UHGV virus genome: UHGV-0468246
Origin: a virus
DNA length: 64,000 bases
Reading direction: 5' to 3' (one strand)
Notes under the pieces: generated by a model
Database searches by the model: none
What the model was told of the DNA's origin: nothing
Seen by the model: only the letters and a program-made list of their open reading frames with translations
Translations under genes and position numbers: made by a program
In this document: piece after piece, positions 5,860-63,979 of the stretch
How positions within the stretch are numbered: the stretch's first letter is position 1
How the letters are laid out: each line of letters opens with the position of its first letter

Positions 5860-7743
5860 TTACGCGTCGCGGGAAACGGAGAACACGAACAGCTCGCTCG
5901 CAAGCTCGGTGAGCATGCTTTCCGCGAGAACGTCTATCCCCATGTACACGTGCCTGTCGCGGACGAGGACGGGTGCGTTCACGACCACATTGACGATGTT
6001 TTCAGCGCTCTGCACCTGATCGTAGCCCGTCGCCCTCCCCTTTCCCATGACGGTGAGCAGCCCGGTTGCCCCAAGCCCTATGTAGAACGAGCGGTCGTAG
6101 TCCGAAACCAAGCCGCCGTCGAGCGTGACCGAGTAGATGTACTCGCGGATGTTCGCTGCGCTCTCGCCGAACAGGCCGACGAACGGGTACGGTCGCATCT
6201 CCACGGTGTCGTCCACGTAGTATCCGCACCGACCGACGAGGCAGACGTACTTCCCGCCGCTCTCGATTATTTTATCGACAACCGCAATCGCGTCGGCCTC
6301 CATGTTCGACACCATGAACAGGCATGTGGCGGCGTTCCGGCTGTACTTGTCCTCATGCTTCAGATCGTCATCGAAGAGAACCCTCATGCGGTTGCTCGTC
6401 TTGTCGATCATGAGCGATGCCATGGAGTACCACGCCTCCATGTACGACACGTTGGCCTCGGTCTGCCAGTTCGCCGCCTGAAGCGAGCGCATGGACAGCG
6501 CCATGCCGTTGTAATCGGAGGCGTTGCGCTCCGATATGCGGTACTTGTCCATCGCGGCCCACAGCTCGATCACCTTCTCGTCCGATAGAAGGCGGTAGTC
6601 GGAGTAGTCGCCCACGACGACCTGCGAGGCGTTGTACTTCGCGAGCACGGAGAACATTCCGTCGGGCTGCGTTATGTCGGGCACGTCGAGCACGAATACC
6701 GGCTTGCACGCCTCCCCGATGCGGCAGCACACGGCGGTCAACGCCTCGAAGCTGCGAAGCTCGCTCTGCTCGTCGGTGCTCTTCTGGTACTTCATGGGCA
6801 TGCCCGCATAGGCCCAGCCGTACGTGCCGAAGTCGGACGCTATGCCGCTCCTCGCATACCCGGCACCGTCGGAATCGACTAGGCAGTAGGCGTAGTCGGG
6901 AACTATTGCCGTGAGGGCCGTCTGCCCTATCTTGGACTTGATCGAGACGCACAGCGCGCGCTGCTCCTCCGCGAGGAACGAGCGCCACAGCAGGTAGTCG
7001 TCGTCCACCCCGTTGATGACGTAGCGGTCGCTGGGCATGACGCGGTTCCGCTCGTAGAAGTTCCTGTCAGCCGTCGCGTTGCGGTCGTATCGCAGACCGG
7101 CAAGCCCGATGCCGTCGAGGCAGTACCCGTACACGTCGGTTCCGTGCATCGTGCGCAGCTCGTCGATGAGGGCGGTGAGCGCGTCCTTCGCCCCGGACGG
7201 CGAAAACATGCGCGAGTACTCGCCCGTGCTCGACCTCTGCTGGTACGGATGGAAGTCGGGGTTCGTCGTGTCGCTCCACAACTCTGACGACACGGCGCAC
7301 GTCACGGCCACGTTGCGGTGCCTGAAACGGTCGAGCAGCTGCTTCAGAACCGGGTTCTTGCCCAGCCCGTAATCGGCGGCGACCTCGCTGTCCCAGTAAA
7401 CCATGCCGTCCTTTGCGACGGTCAGAAGCACCTCGTCGAAGCCTGCGGACGCTATGTCCTCGACCACGACCCGCTCCTTGCCCACGCAGTCCGCCGCGTT
7501 CAGGCGGATGGCGTACCGCATCACGTTCGTCTCGCCGTTGGTGACGCGGTTCCACAGCTTCCACTTGTTCGAGGCGATGCGCTGGATGAGCCACACTTCG
7601 TTGACCTTCGGCGGCTGGTCGAAGCCCGACAGGTCGAACGATATGGTGAGCTTGCCGGTCTGCGTCATGCATGTTATTCCGTCGCTGCCAACGTTGGTTA
7701 TCATCGCGGGCAGCATCTCGTTCTTGTTCATGTTCCTCTGCAT
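5860..7743 (-). CDS. hypothetical virion protein (627 aa)
   Basis: Long ORF with protein-like composition in the tail/baseplate block. Contains the embedded 16-mer CTCGATTATTTTATCG, which encodes DKIIE. Confidence 0.5.
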   Translation of the reverse strand: MQRNMNKNEMLPAMITNVGSDGITCMTQTGKLTISFDLSGFDQPPKVNEVWLIQRIASNKWKLWNRVTNGETNVMRYAIRLNAADCVGKERVVVEDIASAGFDEVLLTVAKDGMVYWDSEVAADYGLGKNPVLKQLLDRFRHRNVAVTCAVSSELWSDTTNPDFHPYQQRSSTGEYSRMFSPSGAKDALTALIDELRTMHGTDVYGYCLDGIGLAGLRYDRNATADRNFYERNRVMPSDRYVINGVDDDYLLWRSFLAEEQRALCVSIKSKIGQTALTAIVPDYAYCLVDSDGAGYARSGIASDFGTYGWAYAGMPMKYQKSTDEQSELRSFEALTAVCCRIGEACKPVFVLDVPDITQPDGMFSVLAKYNASQVVVGDYSDYRLLSDEKVIELWAAMDKYRISERNASDYNGMALSMRSLQAANWQTEANVSYMEAWYSMASLMIDKTSNRMRVLFDDDLKHEDKYSRNAATCLFMVSNMEADAIAVVDKIIESGGKYVCLVGRCGYYVDDTVEMRPYPFVGLFGESAANIREYIYSVTLDGGLVSDYDRSFYIGLGATGLLTVMGKGRATGYDQVQSAENIVNVVVNAPVLVRDRHVYMGIDVLAESMLTELASELFVFSVSRDA

Positions 7744-10301: not shown

Positions 10302-10350
10302 GGCTGACATTCTACCATTCGCGGCGCTCCCCCTCCATGCAGCTCGGCAC

Positions 10351-10368
10351 CTCGATTATTTAATCGAG
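10351..10368. promoter_or_regulatory. near-palindromic motif CTCGATTATTTAATCGAG (copy 1)
   Basis: Read directly. It contains the TAA stop of 10356..11063. On the minus strand it lies about 36 nt upstream of the TGgTAGAAT extended -10 that drives 9165..10301. Confidence 0.45.
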
Positions 10369-15968: not shown

Positions 15969-17060
15969 CTACGCCGCCTTCTCGTAGCGGAAGAAGTGCG
16001 TCCAGCCGCCGGAGATTTTCACCACGGAGATTTCATCGCCCGTCTGGTCTCCGCCCTGCCCGTATATGCCGCCGTCCTCCGCGCTGTGAGCGCCCGCCGT
16101 CTCTCCGTTGCCGATGTACCATTCCGTGTGCGCTGCGCGCCACATGATGTCGCCGCGCTTCAGCGAGCCGACGTTGCCGTCGTACGGGTACATCTTCCAT
16201 CCGATGGGCGGAAGAACCTCCTGCATGCGCGTCGTGTTGAACGTCCAGCTTCCAAGCTCCTCGCGCGTCCATCCACCGGCGAGGAGCGAGTAGAAGACCA
16301 ATGACGAGCAGTCGTAATCGGGGTTCCCGTCGCGGTTCCCCTGACTGTACCCGTGGCTGTCGTCGTTGCATATCTGTATGGCCCACTGCACGGCCTTCTC
16401 GACCGCCTCGTACGAAGCGGTTCCCCCTCCGGCTGACGACGAGCCGCCGGAGCCTATGGCGGGGCCTGACGTTTGCAGCATCTTGTAAATCTGGTTCACC
16501 ATGTCCGCGCCTTGGGTGTCGGCCAGCTTGACGCGGTACATCGACGTTGCGAACTCGATCACGTCGTCGGGCAGCTGCCCTATGGCGATCTTCGACGCGT
16601 CCCAGTTGGCGACGTTGGTGAGCACGTTCGCCCCCACGCGCCAGTACTCCTCGTGCGTCTTCCACGTCGAGCTGTTCGTGAACAGGAGCTGCTGCGATTC
16701 GTACAGCCCCGCGTCCCAGTAGAGCGCTTGGAGGCGGTAGAGCGCGCACTTCCCGGACATCTCGAAGTCGGCGTTGTAGAGCCGCCAGAAGTCGCACTTG
16801 GTGATGTACCCGGCGAAGACCGGGTACTCGTCGCCCTTGGACAGGCGTATGACGATTCTGTCCATGGGCGTGAACGCCCCGTTGTACTTGCCGCCCTTGT
16901 TCTGAAGTGACAGGGAGAACGTGGAGCAGCTATCGACGTTCAGGTTTATCTTGAAGCCGGTGATGTCGTCGGTGAGGTCGTACGCGCGCACGGAGCCGTC
17001 CTGCTGGCGCACCGCCACCTCGGCCTTGACCATCGGCGTGTAGGTGAGTATGGCCGTCAT
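15969..17060 (-). CDS. tail-associated cell-wall hydrolase, paralog 2 (shared N-domain plus NlpC/P60- or CHAP-like C-domain)
   Basis: Internal start giving MTAILTYTPMV (the track ORF is N-extended with Arg-rich junk). Shares GADMVNQIY. The C-terminal part has a Cys...His arrangement (DCSSLV...H) typical of papain-like amidases. ATGA overlap with the upstream paralog. Confidence 0.5.
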   Translation of the reverse strand: MTAILTYTPMVKAEVAVRQQDGSVRAYDLTDDITGFKINLNVDSCSTFSLSLQNKGGKYNGAFTPMDRIVIRLSKGDEYPVFAGYITKCDFWRLYNADFEMSGKCALYRLQALYWDAGLYESQQLLFTNSSTWKTHEEYWRVGANVLTNVANWDASKIAIGQLPDDVIEFATSMYRVKLADTQGADMVNQIYKMLQTSGPAIGSGGSSSAGGGTASYEAVEKAVQWAIQICNDDSHGYSQGNRDGNPDYDCSSLVFYSLLAGGWTREELGSWTFNTTRMQEVLPPIGWKMYPYDGNVGSLKRGDIMWRAAHTEWYIGNGETAGAHSAEDGGIYGQGGDQTGDEISVVKISGGWTHFFRYEKAA

Positions 17061-18157
17061 GGCAGAAGCCCCGGCCTGCACGGATAGGCCTCGTCGAGTA
17101 TAACGCCGCCGTTCCAGCCCCACCCGGTGCCCTGCGGCACGTAGGTGTTGCCGGAGTTCACCCATTCCGTCAGCGACCACTCGTGCACGTACCCTATGTT
17201 GTCGAGAACCACGCCGTTGCCGACGTAGATTCCCACATGGCCGTACACGCATCCGGGGTTGCCGGAGTTGTCCCAGCCGTAGCCGAACACGGCTGCTCCG
17301 ACCTTGACCTTGCTCCAATCCGTCGATGCGCCCCACGCCCGCGCCGCCTCGCGCGCCGAAGACTTGCGGGGTATCTTGATTCCGGCAGCGTCGAACACGT
17401 CGTCAACCCACTTCTGGCAGAAGCCGCCCTGCGTGGTTATGCCGTACCTCTCGGAGTTCTTCGCGACCTCGACGATCTTCTTCTGCGCCTCGGTCACGTC
17501 GCCGTCGAACACGTCCCCGCCGAGGCCCCCGATGTCCCCCGTCGCCTCCGTGAAGGTAGGCCCCGACACCTGCAACATCGAGTAGATTTGATTCACCATG
17601 TCGGCTCCCTGCGTGTCGGCCAGCCTCGCATCGTACATCGACAGCGCCCACTCGATGACCTCGGTCGGTATCTGGCCCACGCTGATGCGCTCGGCGGGCC
17701 AACCGGCGACGCTCATCAGGACGTTGGCTGCGGCGCGCCAGTAGCCGCCGTCCTGATCGGAGCTTTCGGCGCTCTGGAAAGTGACAAGCTCGCGAGACGC
17801 GAGAAGGCCGCTGTCCCAGTAAAGGGCCTGCAAGCGCCATAGAACGTCCTTGCCCGTTATGGTGACGGGCTGCGAGTTCAGCATGAACATGGGAACCTTC
17901 GTGACGTAGCCCGCGAGGACTTGGTAGCGGTTCGCCTTGGAGAGGTATATGGCTATCGCGTCCATGGGCTTGAACGCCCCGTCGTACTTGCCGCCGACGT
18001 TCTGAAGCGTGAGCGAGAACGTGGAGCAGCCGTCGGTGTTCAGCGTCACGGAGAAGTCGGTGATGTCGTCGGTGAGGTCGTAGTACTTGTAGCCGTTCGC
18101 CGTCTGCGCCCTCACCTGCGCGCTCACCATCGGCGTGTAGGCGAGTATGGCCGTCAT
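17057..18157 (-). CDS. tail-associated cell-wall hydrolase, paralog 1 (shared N-domain plus CHAP-like C-domain)
   Basis: Starts MTAILAYTPMV and shares GADMVNQIY. The C-terminal part (GFCQKWV...GHVGIYVG) is CHAP-like. Confidence 0.55.
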   Translation of the reverse strand: MTAILAYTPMVSAQVRAQTANGYKYYDLTDDITDFSVTLNTDGCSTFSLTLQNVGGKYDGAFKPMDAIAIYLSKANRYQVLAGYVTKVPMFMLNSQPVTITGKDVLWRLQALYWDSGLLASRELVTFQSAESSDQDGGYWRAAANVLMSVAGWPAERISVGQIPTEVIEWALSMYDARLADTQGADMVNQIYSMLQVSGPTFTEATGDIGGLGGDVFDGDVTEAQKKIVEVAKNSERYGITTQGGFCQKWVDDVFDAAGIKIPRKSSAREAARAWGASTDWSKVKVGAAVFGYGWDNSGNPGCVYGHVGIYVGNGVVLDNIGYVHEWSLTEWVNSGNTYVPQGTGWGWNGGVILDEAYPCRPGLLP

Positions 18158-18666
18158 GCCCCGGTCGCCTCCCCACGGAACGCAGCGTCGCCCTGCGCCT
18201 TGATATCGTCCTGCTCAACCTTGTCGGCGGGGATGTCGCCAACGCCTCCGGTGTTCTCGCTCTCGTTGCCCTCCTCGCCCGTCTCGTCCTTGACGATGAC
18301 GCACTGGTAGGAGTTTTGGTAGACGGAATCGCCGAACTTCACGTCAACCGGGAAGCTGGTGAACGCGATGGAGTAGGACTTCTTTATGACGGGTATGGAG
18401 AGCACCATGTGGCTCGGCTTGGTCATCGAGGTGAGGTACATGTGGTACTCGGCTATCCAGCGCGAGAACTCCAAGTACTCCTCCCGGCTCCTGAACGCGA
18501 GGCCGAGCGTTATGTCGCTCTTGCGCCAGTTGCGGGGGTACGCCGTCTGCCCCTGCCGCGCGTACGACGTTGCCGTGAGGCCGAGCGACATGCCGAAGGC
18601 GAAGTCCTCGACTATGACATCCTTGCTCCTGCCGTTGTACGTCAGCGTCCCGTTGAACGTTCCCAT
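18154..18666 (-). CDS. hypothetical tail/baseplate protein (170 aa)
   Basis: Protein-like ORF directly downstream of the tape measure block. Confidence 0.4.
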   Translation of the reverse strand: MGTFNGTLTYNGRSKDVIVEDFAFGMSLGLTATSYARQGQTAYPRNWRKSDITLGLAFRSREEYLEFSRWIAEYHMYLTSMTKPSHMVLSIPVIKKSYSIAFTSFPVDVKFGDSVYQNSYQCVIVKDETGEEGNESENTGGVGDIPADKVEQDDIKAQGDAAFRGEATGA

Positions 18667-18667
18667 G

Positions 18668-19381
18668 TCAGCTCACCCTGTTGTAGGAGCCGTCTTCGTT
18701 CCACACGTAGCGAACCATCTCCGACGTGCCGCCCGACACTTCGAGGCGCACCACGCCGTCGTCGGTCGTGACCTCCCCGTCGTCGTTCTGCCTGATCTTC
18801 TCGTACTGCTCGTAGAGGCTCGCGCCGTAAGCGTCGTAGCTCCCGCTGTTCTCCACGACCTGCTTCAGCGCCTTCAGCATGTCTTCCCAGTTGTTCGTGT
18901 CGGGCGTGTTGTACACGCTGCGCGTCCACCCAACGCCGTCGGGGATGGCGTTGAGCGCGTCGGTCGCCACGATCTCCTTGATGGTGTCGAAGCCGGTATC
19001 GACGAAGAACGTGAGCTGGTAGCTTATGGCCGCGACCTTCGGGCTGTAGCTGAACTTCGACACGTCCTTCAGGAACACCTTCCCGTTCCATCCGAGCACC
19101 GGGAAGTAGAACGTGACCGGGTTGCCGGTGTCCACATGGTACTGCATGATGTCGGCCATCTTCTGCTGGAACTCCTCCATGCGCTGGTAGCGGTTCTCGT
19201 TCGTGAGGCCGCGCGCCGAGAGGTAGCCGGTGATGGTGAGGTCGCCGATGTTGCGCGCGATGATCTGGACGACGGTGCCGCCCTTCGTCTGAATCTTGTT
19301 CGTCTTCAGCTCGTAGCCCCATTTCGCCGTGCTGGGGTCGATGCCGAACGCGTAGTTGCCGAGCCTCGCCGTAGCCATCAC
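18668..19381 (-). CDS. hypothetical tail protein (237 aa)
   Basis: Protein-like ORF directly downstream of the tape measure gene. Stop and start overlap. Confidence 0.45.
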   Translation of the reverse strand: MMATARLGNYAFGIDPSTAKWGYELKTNKIQTKGGTVVQIIARNIGDLTITGYLSARGLTNENRYQRMEEFQQKMADIMQYHVDTGNPVTFYFPVLGWNGKVFLKDVSKFSYSPKVAAISYQLTFFVDTGFDTIKEIVATDALNAIPDGVGWTRSVYNTPDTNNWEDMLKALKQVVENSGSYDAYGASLYEQYEKIRQNDDGEVTTDDGVVRLEVSGGTSEMVRYVWNEDGSYNRVS

Positions 19382-21588
19382 ATGCCCCCGTTGTCCGATT
19401 GCATCTGCTCGCGCCCGTTCTCGACCATGATGGCGAGCACCTTTTCAGCGTCGTCCTGCCACCTCACGGTCAGCGCCACGGGCGTTTCTCCCGTGTCGGA
19501 ATCGGAGTAGCCGTACCACGCGCCCTTGTCCTGCCAGTCGAACTTGCCCGACAGGAACGACGCAGCGCCCGTCTGGTTGCCGAGCCAGTCCTTGCCGTAC
19601 TCGCCGTAAGACCACGCGGTGTCGCTGAACATGCGGGCCATGCCCTCGTCGGTCATCCCCGCCATGTCCTCTGCGGTCACTTCGCCGGAAAGCTCCATGG
19701 CCTGCATGAAGATGGCCTTCTCGTCGTCCGACAGGCTCGCGTAGTCCTTCGACAGGATGTCCTTCAGAACCGCGTCGCCCTTCTTGTCGCCCATGCTAAG
19801 GCCGCTCACGTAGTTGGACATCCCGCTGACCTCGATGATGCCCGCCTCGGAGTACGTGTTGATGCTCGATGCCTCGGTGCTTCCGCCAAGCTCCTTCGCG
19901 CGTTCGAGCATGGAGTTCACGCCGTCGCCGCCCACCGATTCCTGCTGGGCGCGGTTCGCGCCGCCCACGAGAACGTCGGACAGCATGTCGAACACCCCGT
20001 CGGGGTCTTCTATGAGGCTCATTGGAAGCTGCTTCATGCCGAACAGGGACGCGAGCTGCTGCTGCACGCTTATCTGCTTCGCCATGCCGTCGATGCCGAG
20101 GCCGCTTGCGTTCTTCAGCTCGCCCACCACGCTGTTGAACTTGTCCCGGTCGCCGCTCATGACCGCGCCGATGAGCGCTTCCACGTCGCCGCCCTTCGTC
20201 TGCGCGGCGTACCCGACCGTCTGCTGTATGGCCGCTGCGTACGCCTGACCGGTGTCCATGCCCTGCGCGATGTTCTGCGACACGTTGTTCTGGAACATGG
20301 GGTTGCTCCCGTACGCGCTTATGAAGCCGTTGGCGGCGCTGTAGGTGTTGCCGCTCGCGTCGCCGAAGAAGCGGGTGAGGTCAACGCCGACCTCCTGCGC
20401 CTCGACCGACGAGCCGGTAAGCCCCTCCATGGTCTTCGCGAAGCCCTCCTGCTGCTCCTGTATGGACGACAGGGACGCGCCCGTGCTCTCCGCCACCTGC
20501 GCGAGCGTGTCGAACTTCTCGTTCAGGTAATCGACGCTCTTGCCGCCCTTCACGACGGCCTTCACGTACTCGTCGGTCGCCTTCGATGCGGACAGGCCGC
20601 GCTCCTGCGTCGCGTTCACGACCCAATCGTAGCCCTGTCCGTACGTCTCGCTGCCGTAGGTCGCGCCGCCCGACATGAGGCCCTGCTGAATCGTCTGCAC
20701 GTCCTTGTCCGAGAGGTTGGTCGTGAACTCCGTGAGCTTCGACTGGATGCCCTGCTCCACGCCGACGTTGAGGTTGCCGGTGCCGCCGGTCGCCTCCAAC
20801 GAGGCGTTCTTCAGACCTTGGAACTGGTCGATGCCGCTCTCCACGAGGTTGAGGCCCGCAACGGCGGTGCCGAGCACCGCGCCCACGGGGCCGAGGAACT
20901 TCAGCACGCCGCCCGCCTTGGAAAGGACGTTGGCGATGGTGCCCATGCCGCGCGTGCCGCCAGCCCCCAGAGCGCCTATGACGGACGTAGCGCCCTGCGC
21001 GACCTCCGCTGCGGTTCCCGCACCCTGCATGACGCGATCTGCCGTGCTAGGCCCCTCGTAGCTCTCCACAAGCCTATCGAAGGAGCTTTGCTGCGCAGAC
21101 GCGCTGCCCTGACGCACGACGTTCGAGTACAGCTTGTCCATGAACTCGTCGTCGCGCGCCCGCATGTCCTCCGCCATCTGTCGGCGGTCGTCGTCGAGGG
21201 CGCGTATGAACTCATCGACCTTCTTGGTTCGCTCCGCCTGCTCCTTGTCGATCTTCTCCTGAAGACTGGCGAACGTCTCCCTCGTCTCGCGAGCGGCATC
21301 CGTCTGCTCCTCAACCGCCTTGGTGAGTTCGGGGGTTTCGAGAACCATGGCCGCGCCGGTGCCGTTGCCGTCGATGCCGACGCTGCCGCCTAGGTCGCGT
21401 ATCTCCTCAATGTAGTCTTGGAACACCCCTATCTGCTTGGTCATCTTATCGACCTCGGAGACGAGGGAGGTTGCCGCCTCCTCGACAACGCTCTTCGACG
21501 CGTCGGCGCGCTGCACCAGCTCGCCCATGCGCTGCGCAACGTCCGTGGAGGACGTTACGGGCCTGCGTACCACGTTGTCTTCGGCCAT
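19378..21588 (-). CDS. tail tape measure protein
   Basis: 736 aa. Ala/Gly/Gln-rich with predicted long helical stretches. Positioned right after the chaperone pair with the frameshift site and before the distal tail genes. Confidence 0.6.
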   Translation of the reverse strand: MAEDNVVRRPVTSSTDVAQRMGELVQRADASKSVVEEAATSLVSEVDKMTKQIGVFQDYIEEIRDLGGSVGIDGNGTGAAMVLETPELTKAVEEQTDAARETRETFASLQEKIDKEQAERTKKVDEFIRALDDDRRQMAEDMRARDDEFMDKLYSNVVRQGSASAQQSSFDRLVESYEGPSTADRVMQGAGTAAEVAQGATSVIGALGAGGTRGMGTIANVLSKAGGVLKFLGPVGAVLGTAVAGLNLVESGIDQFQGLKNASLEATGGTGNLNVGVEQGIQSKLTEFTTNLSDKDVQTIQQGLMSGGATYGSETYGQGYDWVVNATQERGLSASKATDEYVKAVVKGGKSVDYLNEKFDTLAQVAESTGASLSSIQEQQEGFAKTMEGLTGSSVEAQEVGVDLTRFFGDASGNTYSAANGFISAYGSNPMFQNNVSQNIAQGMDTGQAYAAAIQQTVGYAAQTKGGDVEALIGAVMSGDRDKFNSVVGELKNASGLGIDGMAKQISVQQQLASLFGMKQLPMSLIEDPDGVFDMLSDVLVGGANRAQQESVGGDGVNSMLERAKELGGSTEASSINTYSEAGIIEVSGMSNYVSGLSMGDKKGDAVLKDILSKDYASLSDDEKAIFMQAMELSGEVTAEDMAGMTDEGMARMFSDTAWSYGEYGKDWLGNQTGAASFLSGKFDWQDKGAWYGYSDSDTGETPVALTVRWQDDAEKVLAIMVENGREQMQSDNGGM

Positions 21589-29150: not shown

Positions 29151-29231
29151 GGCTTTCTCCTTACTTGCGGGTTGACTTTCCCTTGGTTGCAAAGTCTACC
29201 TCAAAACGGGAAGACGTGCGACATGCGCGGT

Positions 29232-29249
29232 GTCGATTAAATAATCGAG
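29232..29249. promoter_or_regulatory. near-palindromic motif GTCGATTAAATAATCGAG (copy 2)
   Basis: Read directly. On the minus strand it lies about 33 nt upstream of a TAGACT -10 and about 80 nt upstream of the ATG at 29150. Confidence 0.45.
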
Positions 29250-29266
29250 GCCCTTGACAGGCCGTG

Positions 29267-29275
29267 CCCCCCCCC
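29267..29275. repeat. homopolymeric tract C9 in the intergenic promoter region between the capsid terminator and the palindromic motif
   Basis: Read directly. It is the only run of 8 or more C or G outside the collar array. Confidence 0.8.
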
Positions 29276-29330
29276 ATAACGGTTCCTTCGGGCGGCCAGA
29301 TCAACATAGTCAGGCTCCCGACACCGGCGT

Positions 29331-29361
29331 AAAAAAAAAGAACCCCTCTCGCGAGGGGTTC
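29331..29361 (-). terminator. rho-independent terminator downstream of the major capsid gene
   Basis: On the minus strand, the hairpin GAACCCCTCGCGAGAGGGGTTC is followed by T9. Confidence 0.6.
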
Positions 29362-29375
29362 TTCTCTTGCTGCGG

Positions 29376-34678: not shown

Positions 34679-34735
34679 CGCACTTTTCCTTCCAACGTCC
34701 GAGGGAGGGCGCTCGCCCTCCCTTTGATTTCCGAT

Positions 34736-36391
34736 CTAGCGCACATGCTCCCATTCGGGGTCGTAGGCGAACGGGATGTCGTACCACACGTCGCCGTCGA
34801 TCTCGTCTACGAACGTGGTGACTTGGTTCTTGTACTCATAGCCGTCGATCAGCGTCTCCGTCTCCGGGGTCTTGCGCAGGTACAGGTCGGAGTTCCAGTG
34901 GTCGATATCGCTGTCCGGGATGTTCACGGTCTGCTCGTACAGGCTCTGGGCCTTCTTCACGCTCGCGGTCATGGCTGCGGCCTTCCTCTTGGGGTTCTTC
35001 CTGCCGCCCATCTTACCACAAGTCTTAACTTTTGTCTTAACTTTTCCCTCAACTTTTTCTTTTACACTTTCGGCGGCCTTGATGTTCCTCTCGGCCAGCG
35101 CCACCAGCATGCGGTCGTGGATGTCGCACGCGAGCTTCGAGCGCGATGCCACGCGGAAGGCGAAGCCGTTTTCGATGGTGTACCCGTCGTTGATAACGAT
35201 GTCGCGGCCGAAGCCCTCGTAGTCGAAGTACATCTCCTTCTCGTCGTCGCTGATGCCGTCGAAGCCAAGCTCATCGACGATGCGGTACCCCAAGTCGCGC
35301 TCGTCGTACACGTCGCTCCAATAGTCAACGTCGTCGATGTGCTCGGCGACGTATTCAAGGCTTTCGTAGTCGAGCAGCGCGTCGAGCAGATCGTCGTCGA
35401 GGTCTGCGTCCTCTATGGCCTCCACCCACTCGTTCACGCTGTATATGTCGTCGTACTCGCCGACGCTGCTGCCAAGCCCGTCGGTGTCGGCGATCATTAC
35501 CTCTTCGTAGAACTCGCCGTCGGGGCCGGTCTGCGCGCGCTCTATCGCCTCGTCTATCTCGCTGTCGCTCGCGGGGAGGGACAGCCAGTCGCCGTTGGTC
35601 GGGTTGGACACAGCGCCTATGAAGATCGCAACGTCGCCGCCGAACGCGACCTTGCGCGCCGCCCAAGCCTTGTAGCGCGCCTCCTTGGTCTTCAGGCGCG
35701 GCTTGCGGTTGCCAACGTGCTTGGCGGACTTCACGGCCTCCGCCTTGTACTCCGCGTAGGCCTTCTTCTCCGTCAGCTTCGCGCAAGCGATCAGGCCGAC
35801 GGTGCAGCCCATGCCAGCGAGGTGGTGGCGCACGTCGTCGTCGATCTTGCGGGCCATATGGCGCTCGGCCATGCGGGATGCCACCCATTCCGCCTTGGCG
35901 ATCTCCCCTGCGGGCACGCCGTCGGGGTCTCCGTCCATGAGGTCGTCAGCCGCGTCGGTAAGCTCGTCGATGTCCTGCGCGACCCTGAACGCGGCGCTCT
36001 CCTTCTCGTGCGCCTTCAGGTGCTCTTCCAAAGCGTCGTCGGCATCGTTCTTGGCATCCTCGATGCTGTCGGAATGCCCGCTGTCCACGGTGCGGTCGTC
36101 GGTGTCCAGCACGTCCCAGCGGTAGCGCTTCTCGCCGCCGTCGTCCCACTTGACGGTCGCCTGATAGCCGCCGTCGTGCTTGCGCCACGTGGTGTCCTTC
36201 TCGTCCGGGTTCCCCTCGTTGTCTGCCTTCCATTCAGCGGCCATCTTGCGGCCTCCTTCCATGCGCTTCAGGCGCTTCAGCTCGTCTCGCTGGTGGTCTG
36301 TCTCGTCGTAGTCGTAAGGCAGCGCGAAGTCCGTCACGCAGTCGCCGTCGCCCTCGCGAGCCTTGCGGCTCATACCCTTAACAAGCTCCAT
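34736..36391 (-). CDS. large acidic protein with ArdA-like antirestriction segment
   Basis: About 551 aa from MELVKG with AAGGAG RBS. The segment MYFDYEGFGRDIVINDGYTIENGFAF closely resembles the conserved ArdA block (YIDYQAYGRDL...HGIFE of Tn916 ArdA, as I recall it). Confidence 0.45.
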   Translation of the reverse strand: MELVKGMSRKAREGDGDCVTDFALPYDYDETDHQRDELKRLKRMEGGRKMAAEWKADNEGNPDEKDTTWRKHDGGYQATVKWDDGGEKRYRWDVLDTDDRTVDSGHSDSIEDAKNDADDALEEHLKAHEKESAAFRVAQDIDELTDAADDLMDGDPDGVPAGEIAKAEWVASRMAERHMARKIDDDVRHHLAGMGCTVGLIACAKLTEKKAYAEYKAEAVKSAKHVGNRKPRLKTKEARYKAWAARKVAFGGDVAIFIGAVSNPTNGDWLSLPASDSEIDEAIERAQTGPDGEFYEEVMIADTDGLGSSVGEYDDIYSVNEWVEAIEDADLDDDLLDALLDYESLEYVAEHIDDVDYWSDVYDERDLGYRIVDELGFDGISDDEKEMYFDYEGFGRDIVINDGYTIENGFAFRVASRSKLACDIHDRMLVALAERNIKAAESVKEKVEGKVKTKVKTCGKMGGRKNPKRKAAAMTASVKKAQSLYEQTVNIPDSDIDHWNSDLYLRKTPETETLIDGYEYKNQVTTFVDEIDGDVWYDIPFAYDPEWEHVR

Positions 36392-36401
36392 CTTTCTCTC
36401 C

Positions 36402-53887: not shown

Positions 53888-54210
53888 GCGAACACCTCCT
53901 CGTCCGCCATGCCGCCGCTGGCGACGTGAACGCCCATGATTCCCTTCACGTTGTCGGAGACTATGGCGTTGATCTCATCGACGGCCTGCGGGTCGTCGGC
54001 GTGCGAGGATGCCATCGACCGGAACTTCTCCCTAGCCGCCTCCTCGCGGTTGGCAGCGTCGGCGGACTTGACTTCGAGCGCCTGAATCGTCTCCGCGAGC
54101 GACGCTATCCTGCCCTCGCACTCCGAGCACTCGTCGAACGCCTCGCGCCATTCCTGCATGACCTTGGTGATCGCGCTCCGCGAAGCGCCGTCAAGACCGG
54201 GCATCGTCAC
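53884..54210 (-). CDS. hypothetical protein (108 aa)
   Basis: Minus-strand ORF with ATGA-type overlap to its neighbour. Confidence 0.35.
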   Translation of the reverse strand: MTMPGLDGASRSAITKVMQEWREAFDECSECEGRIASLAETIQALEVKSADAANREEAAREKFRSMASSHADDPQAVDEINAIVSDNVKGIMGVHVASGGMADEEVFA

Positions 54211-54848
54211 ACCGCCGGTGTCGTAGTCGAGAAGTCGTACACGGAGGCGAGCGATGGTTCTATCAGCGTCTCGGCACCGTCGTCTTCGAGGGTCGCCGCG
54301 ACCGCTCCGGGCTTCGCCTGCTCCTGCTTCCGGTTCTGCTGCGCCGCGCGCTTCAGCGGCTTAGGCCCGGAAGATGCCCTCTGCGGGGCGCTGACGGCCT
54401 TCTGGGGGGCGCTGGGCTGCTTTTCGGGTTCGGGTGCCGCCTCGTCCGCTTCGGGGGCGCAGAACAGCTTTGAGGGCTTCACGGCTATCTTCGCCGCCGC
54501 CTCGCTCCTTCCCCTGCTCTCCGCAGCCACCTCCTCGATGCCGCCGGGAATCTTCACCTCGCGCTTGCGGGAGGGCTTCTGCCCCTCCGCCGGTGCGGCC
54601 TTCTTGGCCGGTGCGGCCTTCTCGGAGTTCGCTGCGCCGCCCTGCGAGAGGAAGCCCTTCACGACCGCCTCGAACTGCTCGCGGTGCCTCGCGCACACGT
54701 CGTCGAGGAGCATGTACCTCTCGCCGTCGATAAGAACCTCGATTGCGGCGGGCTTGTCCTCGCCGTACTCTTCCAGAATCGCCTCGGTCTCCTCCGGGGA
54801 TATGACATCCCCGCAACCGGGCACGTCGCACACCAACGCTATGCCCAT
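54207..54848 (-). CDS. hypothetical protein with N-terminal Cys pair and Ala/Pro/Lys-rich linker (213 aa)
   Basis: AAAGGAGATGG RBS. The TGaTACAAT -10 and the palindromic motif sit directly upstream. Confidence 0.4.
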   Translation of the reverse strand: MGIALVCDVPGCGDVISPEETEAILEEYGEDKPAAIEVLIDGERYMLLDDVCARHREQFEAVVKGFLSQGGAANSEKAAPAKKAAPAEGQKPSRKREVKIPGGIEEVAAESRGRSEAAAKIAVKPSKLFCAPEADEAAPEPEKQPSAPQKAVSAPQRASSGPKPLKRAAQQNRKQEQAKPGAVAATLEDDGAETLIEPSLASVYDFSTTTPAV

Positions 54849-54888: not shown

Positions 54889-54894
54889 ATTGTA

Positions 54895-55812
54895 TCACAG
54901 CCACTTGCCCTCGGTTGAGAATCTTTGCCAGTCGCCGGAGGCGAGCACGTTGCCGAGCGTCGGGCACCAGTCGCCGCGCCTGTTGTCCATGAGCCACTTC
55001 CGGAAGTCGGGGTTGCGAAGCGCCCGCAGAACGTCCTCCCTCCAACGCCCAACGCCGTCGCCCGCAGCCTCTGCCGCCTCGGCCACGATCTCCCGCTCGC
55101 GCTCCAAGAAGCTCTCGTTCTGGTACCGCAGCGGAACGTCCGGGTACGCCTCCCTGAAGTCCCGATGCGCAGCGTCGATTAAATAATCGAGTTCTGCGGT
55201 GCCCTGCCCTTGGGTGTCTGCGGAGATTTTCCGCGCGCGCGCGCGTTCATTCGTTCCTCCATCATGTCCCTCTCCGTCAGGAGTGGTTTGGTTGTTACAG
55301 GTTGAAGGGGTAGTCTCTGTAACGTAGTCTATGTATATGTCCCCTCTTTTTTGAGGAGACCCTGTCATCATTTTTGATGGGAGGGGGGTGTCCGGGTATG
55401 TAAGCTCGAAGATGCGCTCGACGTTGGGTTTGATGAACAGCACGTTGTTCAAAACCGTGTCGTCGGTTTCGATTGTCCTGAACACTCTGGTGATCGCTCC
55501 GAGCTTTTCCAAGAGGACGACGGCGCGCATGGCGGACTGCTTGGAGATGCCGAACTGGTCGGAGAGCTGCTTGTACGAACGTTGGAGCAAGTCCCCTTTG
55601 AACTTCCTCTGGAAGCCCACGGTCGCGCCCGTGCGCTCATCGCGCATCTCGGTCGGACGATACCAGTAAACTACGTCCGAAAGAACCATGATGGCGTTGA
55701 GGTTCGGCTTCCCCGTATCGCCCACGACCGTTTTGAACCAAGAGCCGGGGATGACGTTCCCTGTGATGTTGAGCTGGCCGATTGCCTCGACCTCCGGCGT
55801 TGTCTCTCTCAT
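54895..55812 (-). CDS. replication initiator-like protein (N-terminal winged-helix DNA-binding domain, low-complexity linker, C-terminal domain)
   Basis: 305-aa continuous ORF. The internal region 55200-55400 is AT-richer and carries repeats, which may be an ori embedded in the gene. Confidence 0.4.
   Translation of the reverse strand: MRETTPEVEAIGQLNITGNVIPGSWFKTVVGDTGKPNLNAIMVLSDVVYWYRPTEMRDERTGATVGFQRKFKGDLLQRSYKQLSDQFGISKQSAMRAVVLLEKLGAITRVFRTIETDDTVLNNVLFIKPNVERIFELTYPDTPLPSKMMTGSPQKRGDIYIDYVTETTPSTCNNQTTPDGEGHDGGTNERARARKISADTQGQGTAELDYLIDAAHRDFREAYPDVPLRYQNESFLEREREIVAEAAEAAGDGVGRWREDVLRALRNPDFRKWLMDNRRGDWCPTLGNVLASGDWQRFSTEGKWL
55174..55191. promoter_or_regulatory. near-palindromic motif GTCGATTAAATAATCGAG (copy 4), inside the replication gene next to the ori-like region
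   Basis: Read directly. It encodes LDYLID in the gene's frame. Confidence 0.4.
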
Positions 55813-55822
55813 GCCCCCTCCC

Positions 55823-56122
55823 CTAAATGCCCTTTGGGCCGACAGCTGCGTACCATTCGATTGACCTGCCGCCGTAACTCCCTGTTTTCACAAGACCGGC
55901 GCGAATGAGCTTGTCGAGCGCTTCGTCGATCTCCGTCTGCGAAGAGAATGTGAGAAGCGAGGCGAAGAGGCTAGGGTCACCCTGCGTCCAATAAAGGCCG
56001 TCGTGGAAGTGCTCGCCGTTCGCGGCGCTCCGCTCGCATCGGGCGGCGATCTTCTCGTAAACGACTGCTGCCGTTACGCCGACTTTCACCGCGACGTTTT
56101 GGTCGAACGACTGTAGTGCCAT
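55823..56122 (-). CDS. small winged-helix/HTH-type DNA-binding protein (putative)
   Basis: 99 aa. The segment VYEKIAARCERSAANGEHFHDGLYWTQ fits a helix-turn-helix pattern. It lies upstream of the replication gene. Confidence 0.4.
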   Translation of the reverse strand: MALQSFDQNVAVKVGVTAAVVYEKIAARCERSAANGEHFHDGLYWTQGDPSLFASLLTFSSQTEIDEALDKLIRAGLVKTGSYGGRSIEWYAAVGPKGI

Positions 56123-56267
56123 GAGATACCCCTAACAAAAAAAAGACCTGTCGGACATTTCGCGTAGGGGTGCGCGATGACCTAAACAAGTCTTTCCGAC
56201 ATTTTAGATCATCACGCACCCCTACGCAAGACCCCATTGTATACCCAAGCGCCCAGAGATTACAAGA

Positions 56268-56896: not shown

Positions 56897-56977
56897 GCCA
56901 GATTCCTCCTTACTCGGAACGTGAAAAGGGCACCCTCTCGGGTGCCCTTCGATGTTACATCCCATAGGCGCTCGGCG

Positions 56978-58096: not shown

Positions 58097-58175
58097 AATC
58101 ACTGCTCCTTCATGCGCATGCGGGTTCTGCTTGAGATTTTAGCAGCAAAAGAAAAGCGGCGCACCCCAGTAGGCC

Positions 58176-58193
58176 CTCGATTAAATAATCGAG
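58176..58193. promoter_or_regulatory. near-palindromic motif CTCGATTAAATAATCGAG (copy 5), in the loop of a larger GC-rich inverted repeat followed by a T-rich tract
   Basis: Read directly. The flanks GCGGCGCACCCC and GGGGCGCGCCGC pair. On the minus strand the structure is followed by TTTTCTTTT and then TGcTAAAAT. Confidence 0.45.
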
Positions 58194-58224
58194 CCTGCGG
58201 GGCGCGCCGCCTCGTCCCTCGGAA

Positions 58225-61147: not shown

Positions 61148-62358
61148 GGCGGCACCGCCTCCTCCTCCGCCTTGAAGTTGTACACCGGTCGCATGACCTG
61201 CACAACGTCCACCGTGTCGGCCACGCTCTCGATTATTTTATCGGCATCCTTGTACGCGCCGGGTGCCTCGTCGAGCGTCGAGGAGCCTATGCACGAAGAC
61301 CAAACGCCGTCCATCTGCTCGCGGTAGTCCTTGACGCGGAGGCTCCGCTTCGCCTTCGCGCGGGACATCTTGCGCCCGGCCCCGTGCGGGGCAGACCAGT
61401 TGTAGTCCTCGTTGCCCTTCCCGATGCCGATGACGCAGCCCTTCGCCATGTTGAGCGGGATGATGACCTTCTGGCCCTCGTACGCCGCTATAGCGCCCTT
61501 GCGGATGATGCGGTTCGCCGTATCGACGTAGTTGTGCGTCGAGGAGACCATATCGTCCCAGCCGCCCCATCCCATGCCGGAAAATATCTCGCGCGCCATC
61601 GTCTCGCGGTTGGCCGACGCGTACATCTGGCAGAAGTCGCAGTCGTGAAGGTACTCTTCGAGCAGCCTGCCTTCGGCCCATGCCAGCTCCTTGCCGACCG
61701 AATGCTCGCGCTGTATGCCGTTCATCGTTTGCAGCACGTAGCCGATAAGCTCCTGCTTGCCGTCGGCCTTCAGGCGCTCTATGAAGCCCTCCTTCAGGTA
61801 CCCGGTCGATTGGATGCCGACGCGGGAAAGCTCCTCGTGCGCCGCCTTCTGGTACACGCCGCACACCTGCGAGCCGAGGTTGCGCGAGCCGGAATGGATG
61901 ACCAGCCACAGGTTGCCGTCCATGTCCTCGTCGATCTCGATGAAGTGGTTGCCGCCTCCGAGCGTCCCCACCGACCTCTTGATTCGGTCGAGGTCGTGCA
62001 GGCGGTCGATGCAGGCGAGGTCGTCCCATCCGAACCAGAAGTCCTGCTGCTCGTTTTCGCGCCAGCTCATGCCGGACGGTATGCGCTCGCGCACCACGTC
62101 GTCGAGCGTCTGGAAGTCCACGCGCCTCTTGCCCACGAGGTAGGCGTTCACGCCGCACGATATGTCAACGCCGACGACGTTGGGTATGACGGCATCGCCG
62201 AACGTTGACGTGAGGCCCACCACGCATCCGATGCCAGCGTGGGCATCGGGCATGACGCGTATGCGCTGCTCCTTGAACGGTCGGAGCGCTGCAAGCTCCT
62301 CGACCTGCCTGCGCGCCTCGTCCTCGATCTCCTCCGCGTAGATTTTAACGTCTTCCAT
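61135..62358 (-). CDS. rtcB: RtcB-family RNA 3'-phosphate ligase
   Basis: The conserved blocks PDAHAGIG, GGGNHF, HSGSRNLG and HGAGR are spread along the length. Real start MEDVKIYAEE. Contains the embedded motif variant encoding DKIIE. Confidence 0.7.
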   Translation of the reverse strand: MEDVKIYAEEIEDEARRQVEELAALRPFKEQRIRVMPDAHAGIGCVVGLTSTFGDAVIPNVVGVDISCGVNAYLVGKRRVDFQTLDDVVRERIPSGMSWRENEQQDFWFGWDDLACIDRLHDLDRIKRSVGTLGGGNHFIEIDEDMDGNLWLVIHSGSRNLGSQVCGVYQKAAHEELSRVGIQSTGYLKEGFIERLKADGKQELIGYVLQTMNGIQREHSVGKELAWAEGRLLEEYLHDCDFCQMYASANRETMAREIFSGMGWGGWDDMVSSTHNYVDTANRIIRKGAIAAYEGQKVIIPLNMAKGCVIGIGKGNEDYNWSAPHGAGRKMSRAKAKRSLRVKDYREQMDGVWSSCIGSSTLDEAPGAYKDADKIIESVADTVDVVQVMRPVYNFKAEEEAVPPWKK

Positions 62359-62741: not shown

Positions 62742-62799
62742 AAAGCCTCCTTCCAGAACCTTTGGGACAACAGTCTACCATGTAAGAGAAGAAATTAAA

Positions 62800-62854: not shown

Positions 62855-63979
62855 CTACGGCTCGATTATGAGAACCGCGTTCGCCGGTGCCGACGACGCG
62901 GCACCCACGTATATCTCCTTGGCCGTCGATGCCAAGGCGGTCGCCGTCACGGCGGTGACGTTGATCGAGATGTTGCCCGACAGGTCTCCGGAGCCGGAGC
63001 CTGTCGCGTTGCCGGTGAGCGAGAACGTCCGGGAAGCCGACAGCTTGCCAGCGCTCGTGGCGCTCGTGGCGGTGGTCGCGTTGCCCGACAGCGCGCCGTA
63101 GAACGTCGTGGCGTACATCGCCAAGAACTTGTTCGCGCTCGTGCCGACGGTCTTGGTGTTCGTGGCGGACGACAGGATGTTCCCAACGCCCGACATGTCG
63201 CCGGAGACGGCGGCGCTGCCGTCGAAGCTCTGCCCCCATAGGCCGCGCGCCGTGGCGAGCTTCGTTGCCGTCCCGGCGTTGCCGCTCACGGCGGTCTGCA
63301 CGGGGTGCACGTGGTCTTCCCTCGCCCACTTCGTCGCCGTGCCGACCGCCGCCGTGGCCGCGACCTTCGGAGCTGCGGTGCCAGCGTAGGGAACGCCGAC
63401 CGTCGTCCACGCCTCCGCGACCGTCGTGCCGCCGAAGCCGCCCTTCGACACCGCCACCGGGTTGATGAAGTCGGTTCCGCCGTTGGGCTGAACGTCTCCG
63501 ACCACCACGAACTGCGTGCCGTCGTACATGACGAGGTACGGCACGGAGAGCCTGAAGTAGCCAGCCGTCGGGACGGCCACCGGCGTGCCGGTCTGGGTGA
63601 AGCGGCGTATGTTCTTCGCACCGAGCGAGTTGATGTTGAGCGTCACGTCAACGCTCGCCGACGTGACCGACGGGACGATCACCAGCAAGCGCCCCTTCAG
63701 GCCCGCGAGCGTCGTTGCCCACGGAGGCCCGGAGAGCGTGCCCGTGTACGCCGACGACGTTCCAGCGAGCGTCACGACGGGCGCTGACATGCGACCGTCA
63801 ACCGTGTTGAGCGATATGAGGCCGTTCACGCTCGCTGACGCGACCGGTATGGCGGCAACCGTTTCCGAGACGATCTGGCGCTGGTCTGCGTCAGTCCAGT
63901 AGTCAACGCCGCGCACGGGCGTGTCGCCCTTCGGGATGCCGAACTCCAACTGCGCCGCGTTCGACGTTCCGGCGTTCAC
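62855..63979 (-). CDS. Ala/Gly/Thr-rich fibre-like protein (374 aa; start may lie beyond window)
   Basis: Repetitive G/A/T/S-rich sequence with NAGTATKLATARGLWGQSFDGSAAVSG-type fibre repeats. GTG start near the window edge. Confidence 0.45.
   Translation of the reverse strand: MNAGTSNAAQLEFGIPKGDTPVRGVDYWTDADQRQIVSETVAAIPVASASVNGLISLNTVDGRMSAPVVTLAGTSSAYTGTLSGPPWATTLAGLKGRLLVIVPSVTSASVDVTLNINSLGAKNIRRFTQTGTPVAVPTAGYFRLSVPYLVMYDGTQFVVVGDVQPNGGTDFINPVAVSKGGFGGTTVAEAWTTVGVPYAGTAAPKVAATAAVGTATKWAREDHVHPVQTAVSGNAGTATKLATARGLWGQSFDGSAAVSGDMSGVGNILSSATNTKTVGTSANKFLAMYATTFYGALSGNATTATSATSAGKLSASRTFSLTGNATGSGSGDLSGNISINVTAVTATALASTAKEIYVGAASSAPANAVLIIEP

Follow-up and report, generated by a model that had tools for sequence, protein, structure and literature searches.

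The subject of this report is a short palindromic element that recurs along a 64,000-nucleotide (nt) stretch of the virus genome UHGV-0468246; the whole of this stretch is called the window. By BLAST of its full length, the window was found to be the reverse complement of positions 21,584-85,463 of Eggerthella phage LE2-3 (MW679026.1), with an identity of 98-99%, and nearly all genes therefore lie on its minus strand. A 4-kb probe matched LE2-3 alone (98.3% identity), and the segment at 33488-36367 is diverged, being just 90.6% identical to LE2-3. LE2-3 is a myophage with a circular record of 111,961 bp, and its host is Eggerthella lenta DSM 2243. On the basis of terminase similarity, its nearest cultured relatives are the Cluster C mycobacteriophages and myoviruses of Rhodococcus and Gordonia, at 32-35% amino-acid identity. 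No integrase or repressor was found among the 142 annotated features of LE2-3. A literature search returned no publication on this phage; a 2026 preprint on phiKL11 describes an unrelated 44-kb siphovirus.

The element is a 7-2-7 palindrome, TCGATTA-ww-TAATCGA, with the consensus yCGATwAwwTAATCGAG, and its best copies extend to the full 18-mer CTCGA...TCGAG. The centers of the two half-sites are 11 bp apart, a spacing that suits a dimer of the helix-turn-helix type. The copies found in the window are listed below (SD, Shine-Dalgarno sequence).

6263..6278, minus strand: variant copy TCGATAAAATAATCGA, inside the gene-106 orthologue, where it is read D-K-I-I-E
10351..10368, minus strand: copy CTCGATTAAATAATCGAG, at the junction of genes 103 and 104, supplying the TAA stop codon of gene 103
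29233..29248, minus strand: copy TCGATTATTTAATCGA, between the major capsid gene and gene 79, found at the same place in the relatives L075/L076 and L311
34653..34668, minus strand: variant copy CCGATAAAATAATCGA, in codons 4-9 of the gene-74 orthologue, kept in the relative L075
54872..54887, minus strand: copy TCGATTAAATAATCGA, at the junction of genes 54 and 55, followed by the SD and the ATG of gene 55
55175..55190, minus strand: copy in the linker-coding part of gene 54, read D-Y-L-I-E
58177..58192, minus strand: copy upstream of gene 50, in the apical stem-loop of a terminator-like hairpin
61229..61244, minus strand: variant copy CCGATAAAATAATCGA, in the 3' end of the RtcB gene, with the next start codon 81 nt downstream

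Copies of the palindrome in the window and in LE2-3

An earlier note, made from the letters of the window alone, had reported five copies, and the 16-nt core TCGATTAnnTAATCGA was found to be exact at all five (10352, 29233, 54872, 55175, and 58177). The copy at 10351 does provide the stop codon of the upstream gene, as that note had observed. Its claim that the motif is far more frequent than chance allows was also borne out. When up to 2 mismatches to the core were permitted, 9 matches were found in the window against 0.11 expected from 100 dinucleotide shuffles, and 8 distinct sites were recovered with the refined pattern YCGATWAWWTAATCGA, for which the expectation is 0.00. The earlier note had missed three variant copies, at 6263, 34653, and 61229, which read YCGATAAAATAATCGA on the minus (sense) strand. 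All three sit in open reading frames (ORFs) and are read D-K-I-I-E, the sole stop-free frame in that orientation. The copy at 34653 is conserved even though the surrounding segment is the one that is only 90.6% identical to LE2-3.

The complete LE2-3 genome contains 16 copies, or about 1 per 7 kb. A genome-wide scan with a position-weight matrix gave these 16 sites scores of at least 27.5 bits, and the next best score was 9.1 bits; there are no weaker sites. Intergenic DNA makes up 5.7% of the LE2-3 genome and contains or touches 11-12 of the 16 copies. In seven of the 16, a start codon follows the end of the copy at 14-27 nt and the SD comes without a gap, as in TAATCGAGAAGGAG; the stop codon of the preceding gene lies within or next to several copies. 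The association with promoters proposed in the earlier note was found to hold for some copies, whereas most of the 16 lie in junctions of the form stop-motif-SD or in ORFs. One such copy bears on an annotation. The probable start of LE2-3 gene 141 (111607-111824 region, outside the window) is the GTG at 111638, not the annotated 111824; this GTG lies 14 nt past a motif copy and the SD GAAAGGAG, and the short upstream gene 140 looks doubtful.

The two halves of the motif do not vary equally, a feature that the earlier note had not seen. On the sense strand, the right half TAATCGAG (TAATCGA) is invariant and is followed by G (G17) in 14 of the 16 LE2-3 copies. All 10 deviant half-sites in LE2-3 are left halves (CCGATTA, TCGATAA, CCGATAA, and TGAATTA), and the orientation of the motif may follow transcription. 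The sites beside minus-strand genes in the relatives L074 and L080 are flipped, and three sites in low-GC relatives depart from this pattern.

The motif is not a repeat of the host. A search of 185,579 species genomes for the exact 18-mer gave 21 hits, about the number expected by chance; they fell in unrelated taxa, with never more than one per genome. None of these hits was in a representative genome of Eggerthella or any other member of the Coriobacteriia; degenerate host sites were not searched. A host repeat family of the REP type (repetitive extragenic palindrome) or a host regulon is therefore rejected for exact copies. The LexA (SOS) box was rejected as well, since the core GATTAwwTAATC differs from GAAC-N4-GTTC and from the actinobacterial TCGAAC-N4-GTTCGA. 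LE2-3 contains the GAAC-N4-GTTC pattern twice (1.2 expected), both times away from the motif copies, and the window does not contain it.

No gathering-threshold match to Rfam was found anywhere in the window. The motif alone is predicted to fold at -2.5 to -6 kcal/mol and has no U-tract, and thus does not take the form of an intrinsic terminator. A lone half-site, ATAATCGAG, which the earlier note had assigned to the end of gene 62855..63979, is present at 62861. Approximately 0.9 chance occurrences of that 8-mer are estimated from base composition, and this half-site was not counted as a motif site. Another 18-mer, GTCGATTACCTGAACGAG (V-D-Y-L-N-E; window 20517-20534, LE2-3 65759-65776 and 102188-102205), shares the left half-site of the motif and is identical in gene 88 and the gene for DNA polymerase III alpha (Pol III alpha), two genes that are unrelated; by our estimate, about 0.1 such pairs would be expected by chance.

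Conservation in relatives and predicted promoter geometry

Relatives at graded distances were collected by way of three sets of homologues (gene 54, the capsid protein, and the terminase) and by searching IMG/VR for the pattern; the searches made with the high-GC motif returned near-identical relatives only. In L071-L073 the gene 54 protein is 64-89% identical. The lower-GC relatives include L074 and L080 (45-47% GC) and L081, L082, and IMG/VR contig 115635 (36-41% GC). Sequence records of low-GC relatives are IMGVR_UViG_3300045988_115635, ERR4333965_16312 (Logan), and SRR29082279_8828. In the distant phages L077-L079 and L083, whose major capsid protein or terminase is 43-49% identical, no copy was found within about 20 kb.

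The motif is conserved in an all-or-none manner. It is kept at all four shared sites in L071-L073, where the flanks have diverged, and the variants TTATTT, TAAAAT, and C1 replace one another at the same site. Over 11 orthologous comparisons the motif is 92% identical, compared with 49% for the 30-nt flanks. The copy at 54872 is kept in L071, L072, and L073 and is duplicated in L081 and L159, where the two copies are 24-36 bp apart. The copy at 55175 is kept in L071-L073 and is absent from the gene-54 orthologues of L081 and L159. The copy at 61229 is kept in L071 and L072, and in L081 the site has shifted to just past the RtcB stop codon. In length, the C-terminus of RtcB matches that of other RtcB proteins. 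Over 1.1 kb of gene 54 the window and LE2-3 do not differ outside a scrambled patch of about 70 bp, in the midst of which the 16-mer is perfectly conserved. This patch, at window 55140-55215 (minus strand), has dense substitutions and a small indel, is centered on the motif, and looks like a short conversion or recombination tract.

The low-GC relatives carry TCAATwAwwTAATTGAG, in which G3 has become A and C14 has become T together (CGAT/ATCG to CAAT/ATTG). Because both half-sites change together, the dyad symmetry itself is under selection. In place of the window's single copy before gene 50, L081 has a tandem array of six with a repeat period of about 24 bp; a terminator and the -10 element of gene 50 come immediately after it. 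Nearly every motif copy in an IMG/VR phage of 105 kb adjoins the palindrome GAACAnnTGTTC, which resembles a Gram-positive LexA box, and cassettes of the form motif-N3-GAACAnnTGTTC-N3-motif are frequent in the low-GC relatives. One such cassette in L159 lies between convergent genes beside a terminator, and a role at promoters only does not explain that copy. LexA (Cheo)-like palindromes, AGAACAnnTGTTCk, were found 2-3 nt from almost every motif copy in the low-GC relatives L159 (5584-5598, 11545-11559, and 14140-14153), L081 (3712-3725 and 6430-6443), L299, L311, and L313. They are absent at the motif copies of LE2-3.

The elements of the window that define the position of the motif relative to transcription are as follows. 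The -10 elements are predicted hexamers, and all of the center positions given below rest on these predictions.

10309..10314, minus strand: predicted -10 hexamer TAGAAT preceded by TGg; the ATG of tail gene 104 follows after 7 nt, and the motif core ends 37 nt upstream
29193..29198, minus strand: predicted -10 hexamer TAGACT (gene-79 promoter), with the motif 34 nt upstream
54889..54897, minus strand: predicted extended -10 element TGATACAAT, 1 nt upstream of the motif copy at 54872
58136..58144, minus strand: predicted extended -10 element TGCTAAAAT (gene-50 promoter), with the motif 35 nt upstream
58147..58216, minus strand: long GC-rich hairpin with TTTTCTTTT, predicted at -49 kcal/mol, enclosing the motif; intrinsic-terminator-like, after gene 49

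Three copies had been placed 31-36 nt upstream of -10 elements in the earlier note and read as an activator site centered near -50. The -10 elements are present, and the distances measured from the 16-nt core are 37, 34, and 35 nt (genes 104, 79, and 50, respectively). The tie to promoters and the kept spacing of 34-35 nt at genes 50 and 79 support this reading, whereas the center falls nearer -55 and the start points are predicted. For the gene-50 promoter the distance from motif to -10 was determined to be 35, 34, 35, 35, and 34 nt in LE2-3, L071, L073, L081, and L159, respectively. For the gene-79 promoter it was 34, 35, and 35 nt in LE2-3, L075, and L311. These distances are kept despite a spacer identity between clades of just 35-69%. 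The distance of 37 nt at the gene-104 promoter is seen only in near-identical genomes. The predicted motif centers are at -55.5 (gene 50), -54.5 (gene 79), and -57.5 (gene 104). None of the three promoters has a TTGACA-like -35 element, and GTGCG is mostly found at that position. With TAGAAT only 7 nt before the ATG of gene 104, a leaderless or near-leaderless mRNA is implied.

The second arrangement is that of the gene 54/55 junction. As the earlier note had it, a -10 element lies immediately upstream of the copy at 54872, so that the motif would cover approximately -5 to +11 of the gene-55 promoter. This operator-like arrangement is kept in all relatives: each lineage has a -10 element (TACAAT or TATAAT) there, followed by the motif after 1, 11, or 16 nt. 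At LE2-3 97650, before the primase gene, a TAAAAT within the motif forms the -10 element of TTTACT-17-TAAAAT. At LE2-3 109207 (gene-135 promoter) the motif starts 8 nt past TGATAGTCT, and in L299 it likewise overlaps an early-type promoter. In a third arrangement the motif fills short stop-motif-SD-start junctions within early operons or lies in 3' parts of ORFs. The copy at 58176 had been assigned to the loop of a GC stem followed by a T-tract, and it does form the apex of the -49 kcal/mol hairpin, which is followed by TTTTCTTTT.

The elements described above escaped a promoter and terminator scan that required a -35 element and a short loop. The intergenic regions of LE2-3 contain many sigma-A-type promoter elements. 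Early-type promoters are AT-rich and highly conserved, with TCTTAAyTT repeats and CTTTACT-17-TGnTAGAAT, and occur in about 10 copies (window 62775-62835, minus strand, and LE2-3 intergenic DNA). A second conserved class, AAAAAGTTAAGACA...TGTGGTAAGAT, has 3 copies. There are also many -10-only TGnTAnAAT elements 7-8 nt before an ATG, from which leaderless mRNAs are implied. No phage RNA polymerase or sigma factor was detected in Pfam and/or PHROG scans of about 55 proteins, and use of the host polymerase is therefore assumed throughout.

Three further elements were observed in the same intergenic DNA. A promoter-like element that contains 8-10 consecutive C (G on the opposite strand), TTGAC(A/T)-N-GTGCCCCCCCCC-(T/A)G-TTACG, precedes each of the 4 opposite-strand LE2-3 genes 36-39. 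It is also found antisense beside the motif copy that follows the capsid gene (window ~29254-29280, plus strand) and just before the Pol III alpha ATG. Its LE2-3 coordinates are 17298-18958, 57020, and 100870, and in the window it starts 5 nt from the motif copy at 29233. A 50-nt terminator module, GAACCCCTCGCGAGAGGGGTTC with a T-run, follows both the GH25 lysin gene (LE2-3 16703-16753) and the capsid gene (56919-56968; window ~29330-29375). Upstream of gene 53, window 56123-56267 (minus strand) is a 146-bp intergenic region with a TTGTAA-18-TACAAT match, a long perfect hairpin (CGTAGGGGTGCGTGATGA...TCATCGCGCACCCCTACG), and a T9 tract; it could encode a small RNA or act as an attenuator.

An operator reading and its alternatives

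We propose that the motif serves in duplex DNA as the operator of a regulator that the phage encodes and that, as a dimer, switches on some promoters and shuts off others, and we assign this reading a probability of about 0.5. A duplex operator is favored by the symmetric change of the half-sites, their 11-bp spacing, the operator-like arrays, the pairing with a DNA palindrome, and the kept distance to the -10 element. Tandem arrays with a period of about 24 bp and motif-box-motif cassettes are typical of cooperative operator arrays. From this pattern we infer binding by a protein, use of the -10 elements as promoters, and the sign of regulation.

According to this proposal, the phage would rely on the host RNA polymerase for all gene classes, with sigma-A-type -10 elements such as TGnTAGAAT, and the regulator would reprogram the polymerase in three ways that are set by the position of the site. 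At a site near -55 (genes 50, 79, and 104) the bound dimer would recruit the polymerase, as the Ogr/delta activators do. At a site over the -10 element or the start (gene 55, and the LE2-3 primase gene and gene 135), the dimer would occlude it. A site in a stop-motif-SD-start junction or in the 3' part of an ORF might serve as a roadblock or have no transcriptional role.

Several observations weigh against this proposal. The weaker sites that are usual in real regulons were not found in LE2-3, and the restriction of deviant half-sites to the left, together with G17 in 14 of the 16 copies, is an asymmetry that a symmetric dimer does not predict. Ten of the 16 LE2-3 copies have no recognizable promoter nearby, and the L159 copy between convergent genes lies beside a terminator. 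The position near -55 depends on the predicted -10 hexamers, and the gene-104 spacing of 37 nt, from near-identical genomes only, is 2-3 bp out of register with the other two. Finally, searches of about 55 proteins against Pfam, PHROG, and the PDB revealed no repressor-like helix-turn-helix protein, sigma factor, or polymerase besides the initiator gp54 (the product of gene 54).

The genes around the copies at 54872 and 55175 bear on the question of which protein binds the motif.

54207..54848, minus strand: gene 55, whose promoter is covered by the motif
54895..55812, minus strand: gene 54, encoding a lambda-O-like or HTH_36-type replication initiator (PHROG 270, 3e-14; DUF6017/HTH_36 homologues)
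55255..55420, minus strand: ori-like repeats in gene 54, distinct from the motif

By position, with its own promoter covered by the motif, gp55 is a candidate for an autoregulated binder. Its N-terminal domain is conserved and of the Cys/Cys/Cys/His type, its K/P/A-rich linker is basic, and a peptide at its C-terminus is conserved as well; no match was found in Pfam, PHROG, or the PDB. A single-sequence AlphaFold model of its N-terminus had a pLDDT of 48.6 and was discarded. A second candidate, likewise by position, is gp5, a zinc-ribbon-like protein of 63 residues with CxxC-27-CxxC encoded downstream of a conserved early promoter. Sequence searches of the PDB with gp50, gp55, and gp54 were uninformative. 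The helix-turn-helix protein that the earlier note had suggested, encoded by gene 53 (55823..56122), was rejected as a universal binder because it is absent from L081, which keeps the motif.

The scans of the approximately 55 proteins gave gp54 (a weak MarR_2 match and a PHROG match), zinc-ribbon hints, ArdA, cement, portal, prohead protease, and inteins. The ArdA-domain protein (577 residues) is encoded in the head module of the window at 34736-36469 (minus strand). The portal gene at 42360-45581 (minus strand; 1073 residues) contains intein/Hint domains and a LAGLIDADG domain. The protein encoded at 37304-40417 (minus strand; 1037 residues) also contains intein/Hint domains and is annotated as a "tRNA synthetase" in LE2-3; it matches a head-maturation-protease PHROG, and the GenBank name therefore looks wrong. 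Counter-defense genes are represented in this phage group by the ArdA-domain gene of the window and, in relatives, by small genes of the AcrIC5-like and Acb2/Tad1-like types (L075 8194-8427; L081 3463-3681).

The alternatives are taken in the order in which they survive the evidence. The first is that the motif acts as a strand-specific hairpin, as RNA or as extruded single-stranded DNA, that is bound by a phage protein and controls translation, transcript stability, or termination; we regard this as unlikely. The asymmetric variants read YCGATAAAATAATCGAG on the sense strand in 6 of 6 cases in LE2-3 and in 3 in the window, and they do so also beside the minus-strand genes of L074 and L080. 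Seven of the 16 copies abut an SD 14-27 nt before a start codon, and other copies lie just upstream of or within terminator hairpins. The predicted folds of -2.5 to -6 kcal/mol and the change of pair 3-14 from G-C to A-U between clades, with 5 G-U intermediates and 1 A-C, also fit a stem. However, the covariation is not above that of shuffled controls (a score of 0.181, which 143 of 500 shuffles reached, versus 0.163), and it involves a single pair whose change is equally predicted by a symmetric protein site. For gene 55 and the primase gene, transcription is predicted to start within the motif or past it, and the stem would therefore be missing from their transcripts. The distance of 34-35 nt to the -10 element and the tight pairing with the GAAC-N4-GTTC palindrome are features of DNA, the orientation rule is broken at L081 3686, L169 2388, and L311 716, and there is no Rfam match. 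In this model the six-copy array of L081 with its terminator could be a decoy or sponge RNA. The fuller version, in which the folded form gates translation or termination and both the L081-type array and the copy at the apex of the gene-49 terminator are decoys or sponges, is a shade less likely still.

We are more doubtful of a self-contained phage promoter, in which the AT-rich core would be a melting or -10-like region and G17 the start, used by the host polymerase with a phage factor or by a phage polymerase. The all-or-none conservation over 16-18 nt, the single orientation, and the placement at junctions, after hairpins or terminators, and at the 3' ends of upstream genes resemble the promoter sets of T7-type phages. 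The A6 variants contain cGA-TAAAAT, an extended-10-like sequence with its predicted +1 at G17 that would give short leaders starting at the SD, and at LE2-3 97650 the TAAAAT is 17 nt past TTTACT. Against these points, the critical A at -11 is missing in 10 of the 16 copies, where the sequence is TTAAAT or TTATTT. Three copies lie at a fixed distance upstream of a separate -10 element, one is between convergent genes, and neither the symmetric change of the half-sites nor arrays with a 24-bp period would be expected of a directional promoter. The scans that detected no phage RNA polymerase or sigma factor count against it as well.

A role in replication is improbable. Here the motif would be an iteron of the O-like initiator gp54, with the origin in or beside gene 54 and secondary sites elsewhere. 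The earlier note had placed one copy inside the replication gene beside an ori-like region, and this copy does lie in a gene that matches replication-initiator PHROGs, in the linker-coding region beside an AT-rich stretch, as the iterons of the lambda ori do. The link to an origin is weak, and other repeats are the ori-like ones. Three copies fall within 3.3 kb around gene 54, the L081 array of six copies with a 24-bp period is iteron-like and lies 1.5 kb upstream, and the predicted recognition helix of gp54 differs between the CGAT and CAAT clades. The N-terminus of gp54 is a conserved winged helix, and its homologues in Firmicutes are encoded next to ParM-like genes, as in replicons of plasmids or integrative and conjugative elements.

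The repeats at 55255-55420 consist of a CCCTCCCATCA-N5-TGATG palindrome, TCTCCTC-A6-GAGGGGA, two copies of ACA(T/G)AGACTAC, and then (CG)n; the CCCTCCCATCA and ACAGAGACTAC repeats are those of gene 54 itself and are other than the 18-mer motif. The DUF6017 replication genes of Firmicutes, which are 55-60% identical in the DNA-binding domain, have related repeats at the same place and lack the motif. A GGGAGG/CCTCCC palindrome with an A5-6 center and tandem ACAGAGAyT are common to gene 54 and these homologues. Since the other repeats are family-wide and the in-gene motif is missing in L081 and L159, which keep the motif elsewhere, gp54 is unlikely to be the binder. Moreover, 16 dispersed single copies with adjacent SDs and fixed promoter spacing are a poor fit to an origin. 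The origin more likely lies at window 55255-55420, where the repeats would be the likelier initiator sites.

Another DNA transaction, such as a strand-specific nick of the T5/phiKMV type, a target for an HNH or GIY-YIG nuclease (the phage encodes both), or a boundary for modular recombination, is highly improbable: the copies are near-identical, have a one-strand orientation, and are spread about every 7 kb, a recombination-like patch is centered on the gene-54 copy, and repeat recombination is reported for the Cluster O palindromes (PMC4351075), but the mosaic breakpoints between the window and LE2-3 are not at motif copies except loosely near 58.3 kb, the copies arose by substitution within conserved coding sequence and not by insertion (the RtcB C-terminus is of unchanged length), and the kept -10 distance and placement over promoter cores point to transcription.

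If the motif is indeed an operator, one 18-bp site would predict which promoters are switched on (genes 50, 79, and 104) and which are switched off (gene 55, the primase gene, and gene 135). To our knowledge, the phages of Eggerthella lenta and the Coriobacteriia are almost unstudied, and we know of nothing published on the timing of gene expression in LE2-3-like myophages. The change from CGAT to CAAT in relatives is a natural specificity swap that may help to identify the cognate protein through co-variation and to obtain orthogonal regulatory parts for a genetically difficult gut Actinobacterium. The coupling of the motif to SOS-box-like sites in the low-GC relatives hints that the lytic program may be wired to the host damage response. 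Were the folded form correct instead, the motif would define a post-transcriptional regulon, similar in type to CsrA/CsrB, that a lytic actinobacteriophage encodes.

Comparison with known systems

In lambda, four clustered iterons are found only at ori, inside the O gene. The copy in the linker-coding part of the O-like initiator gene, beside AT-rich DNA, is similar to this arrangement. In contrast, there is here one in-gene copy and one at the 3' end of gene 54, and the in-gene copy is lost in L081 and L159.

The conserved inverted repeats (CIRs) of the temperate Streptomyces phage phiC31 are reported by Ingham et al. (1994) and Wilson et al. (1995) to be 17-bp palindromes bound by the c repressor. 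They reportedly occur as many near-identical intergenic copies, some at early promoters and some beside terminators. They differ from the present motif in that phiC31 is temperate, its repressor is known, and the sequence is another one.

The stoperators of Cluster A phages (L5 gp71 and relatives) are asymmetric 13-bp sites that are oriented with transcription, are read by a monomer, and serve immunity in temperate phages, and the stoperator protein both represses a promoter and blocks elongation at internal sites (PMC9283540, PMC6550527). The many conserved copies in short intergenic gaps that touch stop or start codons are alike in the two systems. The present motif is palindromic, however, with both halves changing together, and no integrase or repressor is annotated in LE2-3.

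In the work of Christie and Calendar, the Ogr/delta site is reportedly centered near -55. The predicted centers here, -54.5 to -57.5, are those of a dyad element upstream of structural-gene promoters that have a -10 element and a poor -35 element, as in that system, and the LE2-3 phage encodes small Cys-rich, zinc-ribbon-like proteins (gp5 and the N-terminus of gp55). The late-promoter sites of P2 Ogr and P4 delta are TGT-N12-ACA (PMC3931495), a consensus other than that of the present motif, and neither gp5 nor gp55 has sequence homology to the Cys4 zinc-finger protein Ogr. The Ogr sites are also confined to late promoters and have no known repression, whereas the motif is found in -10/+1 regions and at gene junctions too.

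Cluster O mycobacteriophages carry a 17-bp repeat, TGTTCGGNNNCCGAACA, with 7-bp arms, an AAA/TTT center, and more than 30 near-invariant copies (PMC4351075, Cresawn et al. 2015). These copies are mostly intergenic or at the 5' ends of genes, with some in ORFs; they are absent from the host, and their binder and function are unassigned (PMC4351075). The two elements share 7-bp inverted arms, a short A/T-rich spacer, many near-invariant dispersed copies, the lack of weak copies, and absence from the host. They differ in sequence and in spacing (7-3-7 there, 7-2-7 here). The Cluster O repeat has little orientation bias and 4 of 34 copies near promoters, whereas the present motif has a sense-strand constraint and 6 copies with a defined promoter geometry. 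The phages are also different, a Mycobacterium siphovirus there and a Coriobacteriia myovirus here. The motif of LE2-3 thus provides a second, comparative case beside the unexplained dispersed palindromes of Cluster O, here with a conserved promoter geometry. By sequence and defining features it belongs to none of the families compared. The Cluster O palindrome is its nearest published analogue, an analogue rather than a fellow member, and we class the general kind as a dispersed palindromic phage operator set.

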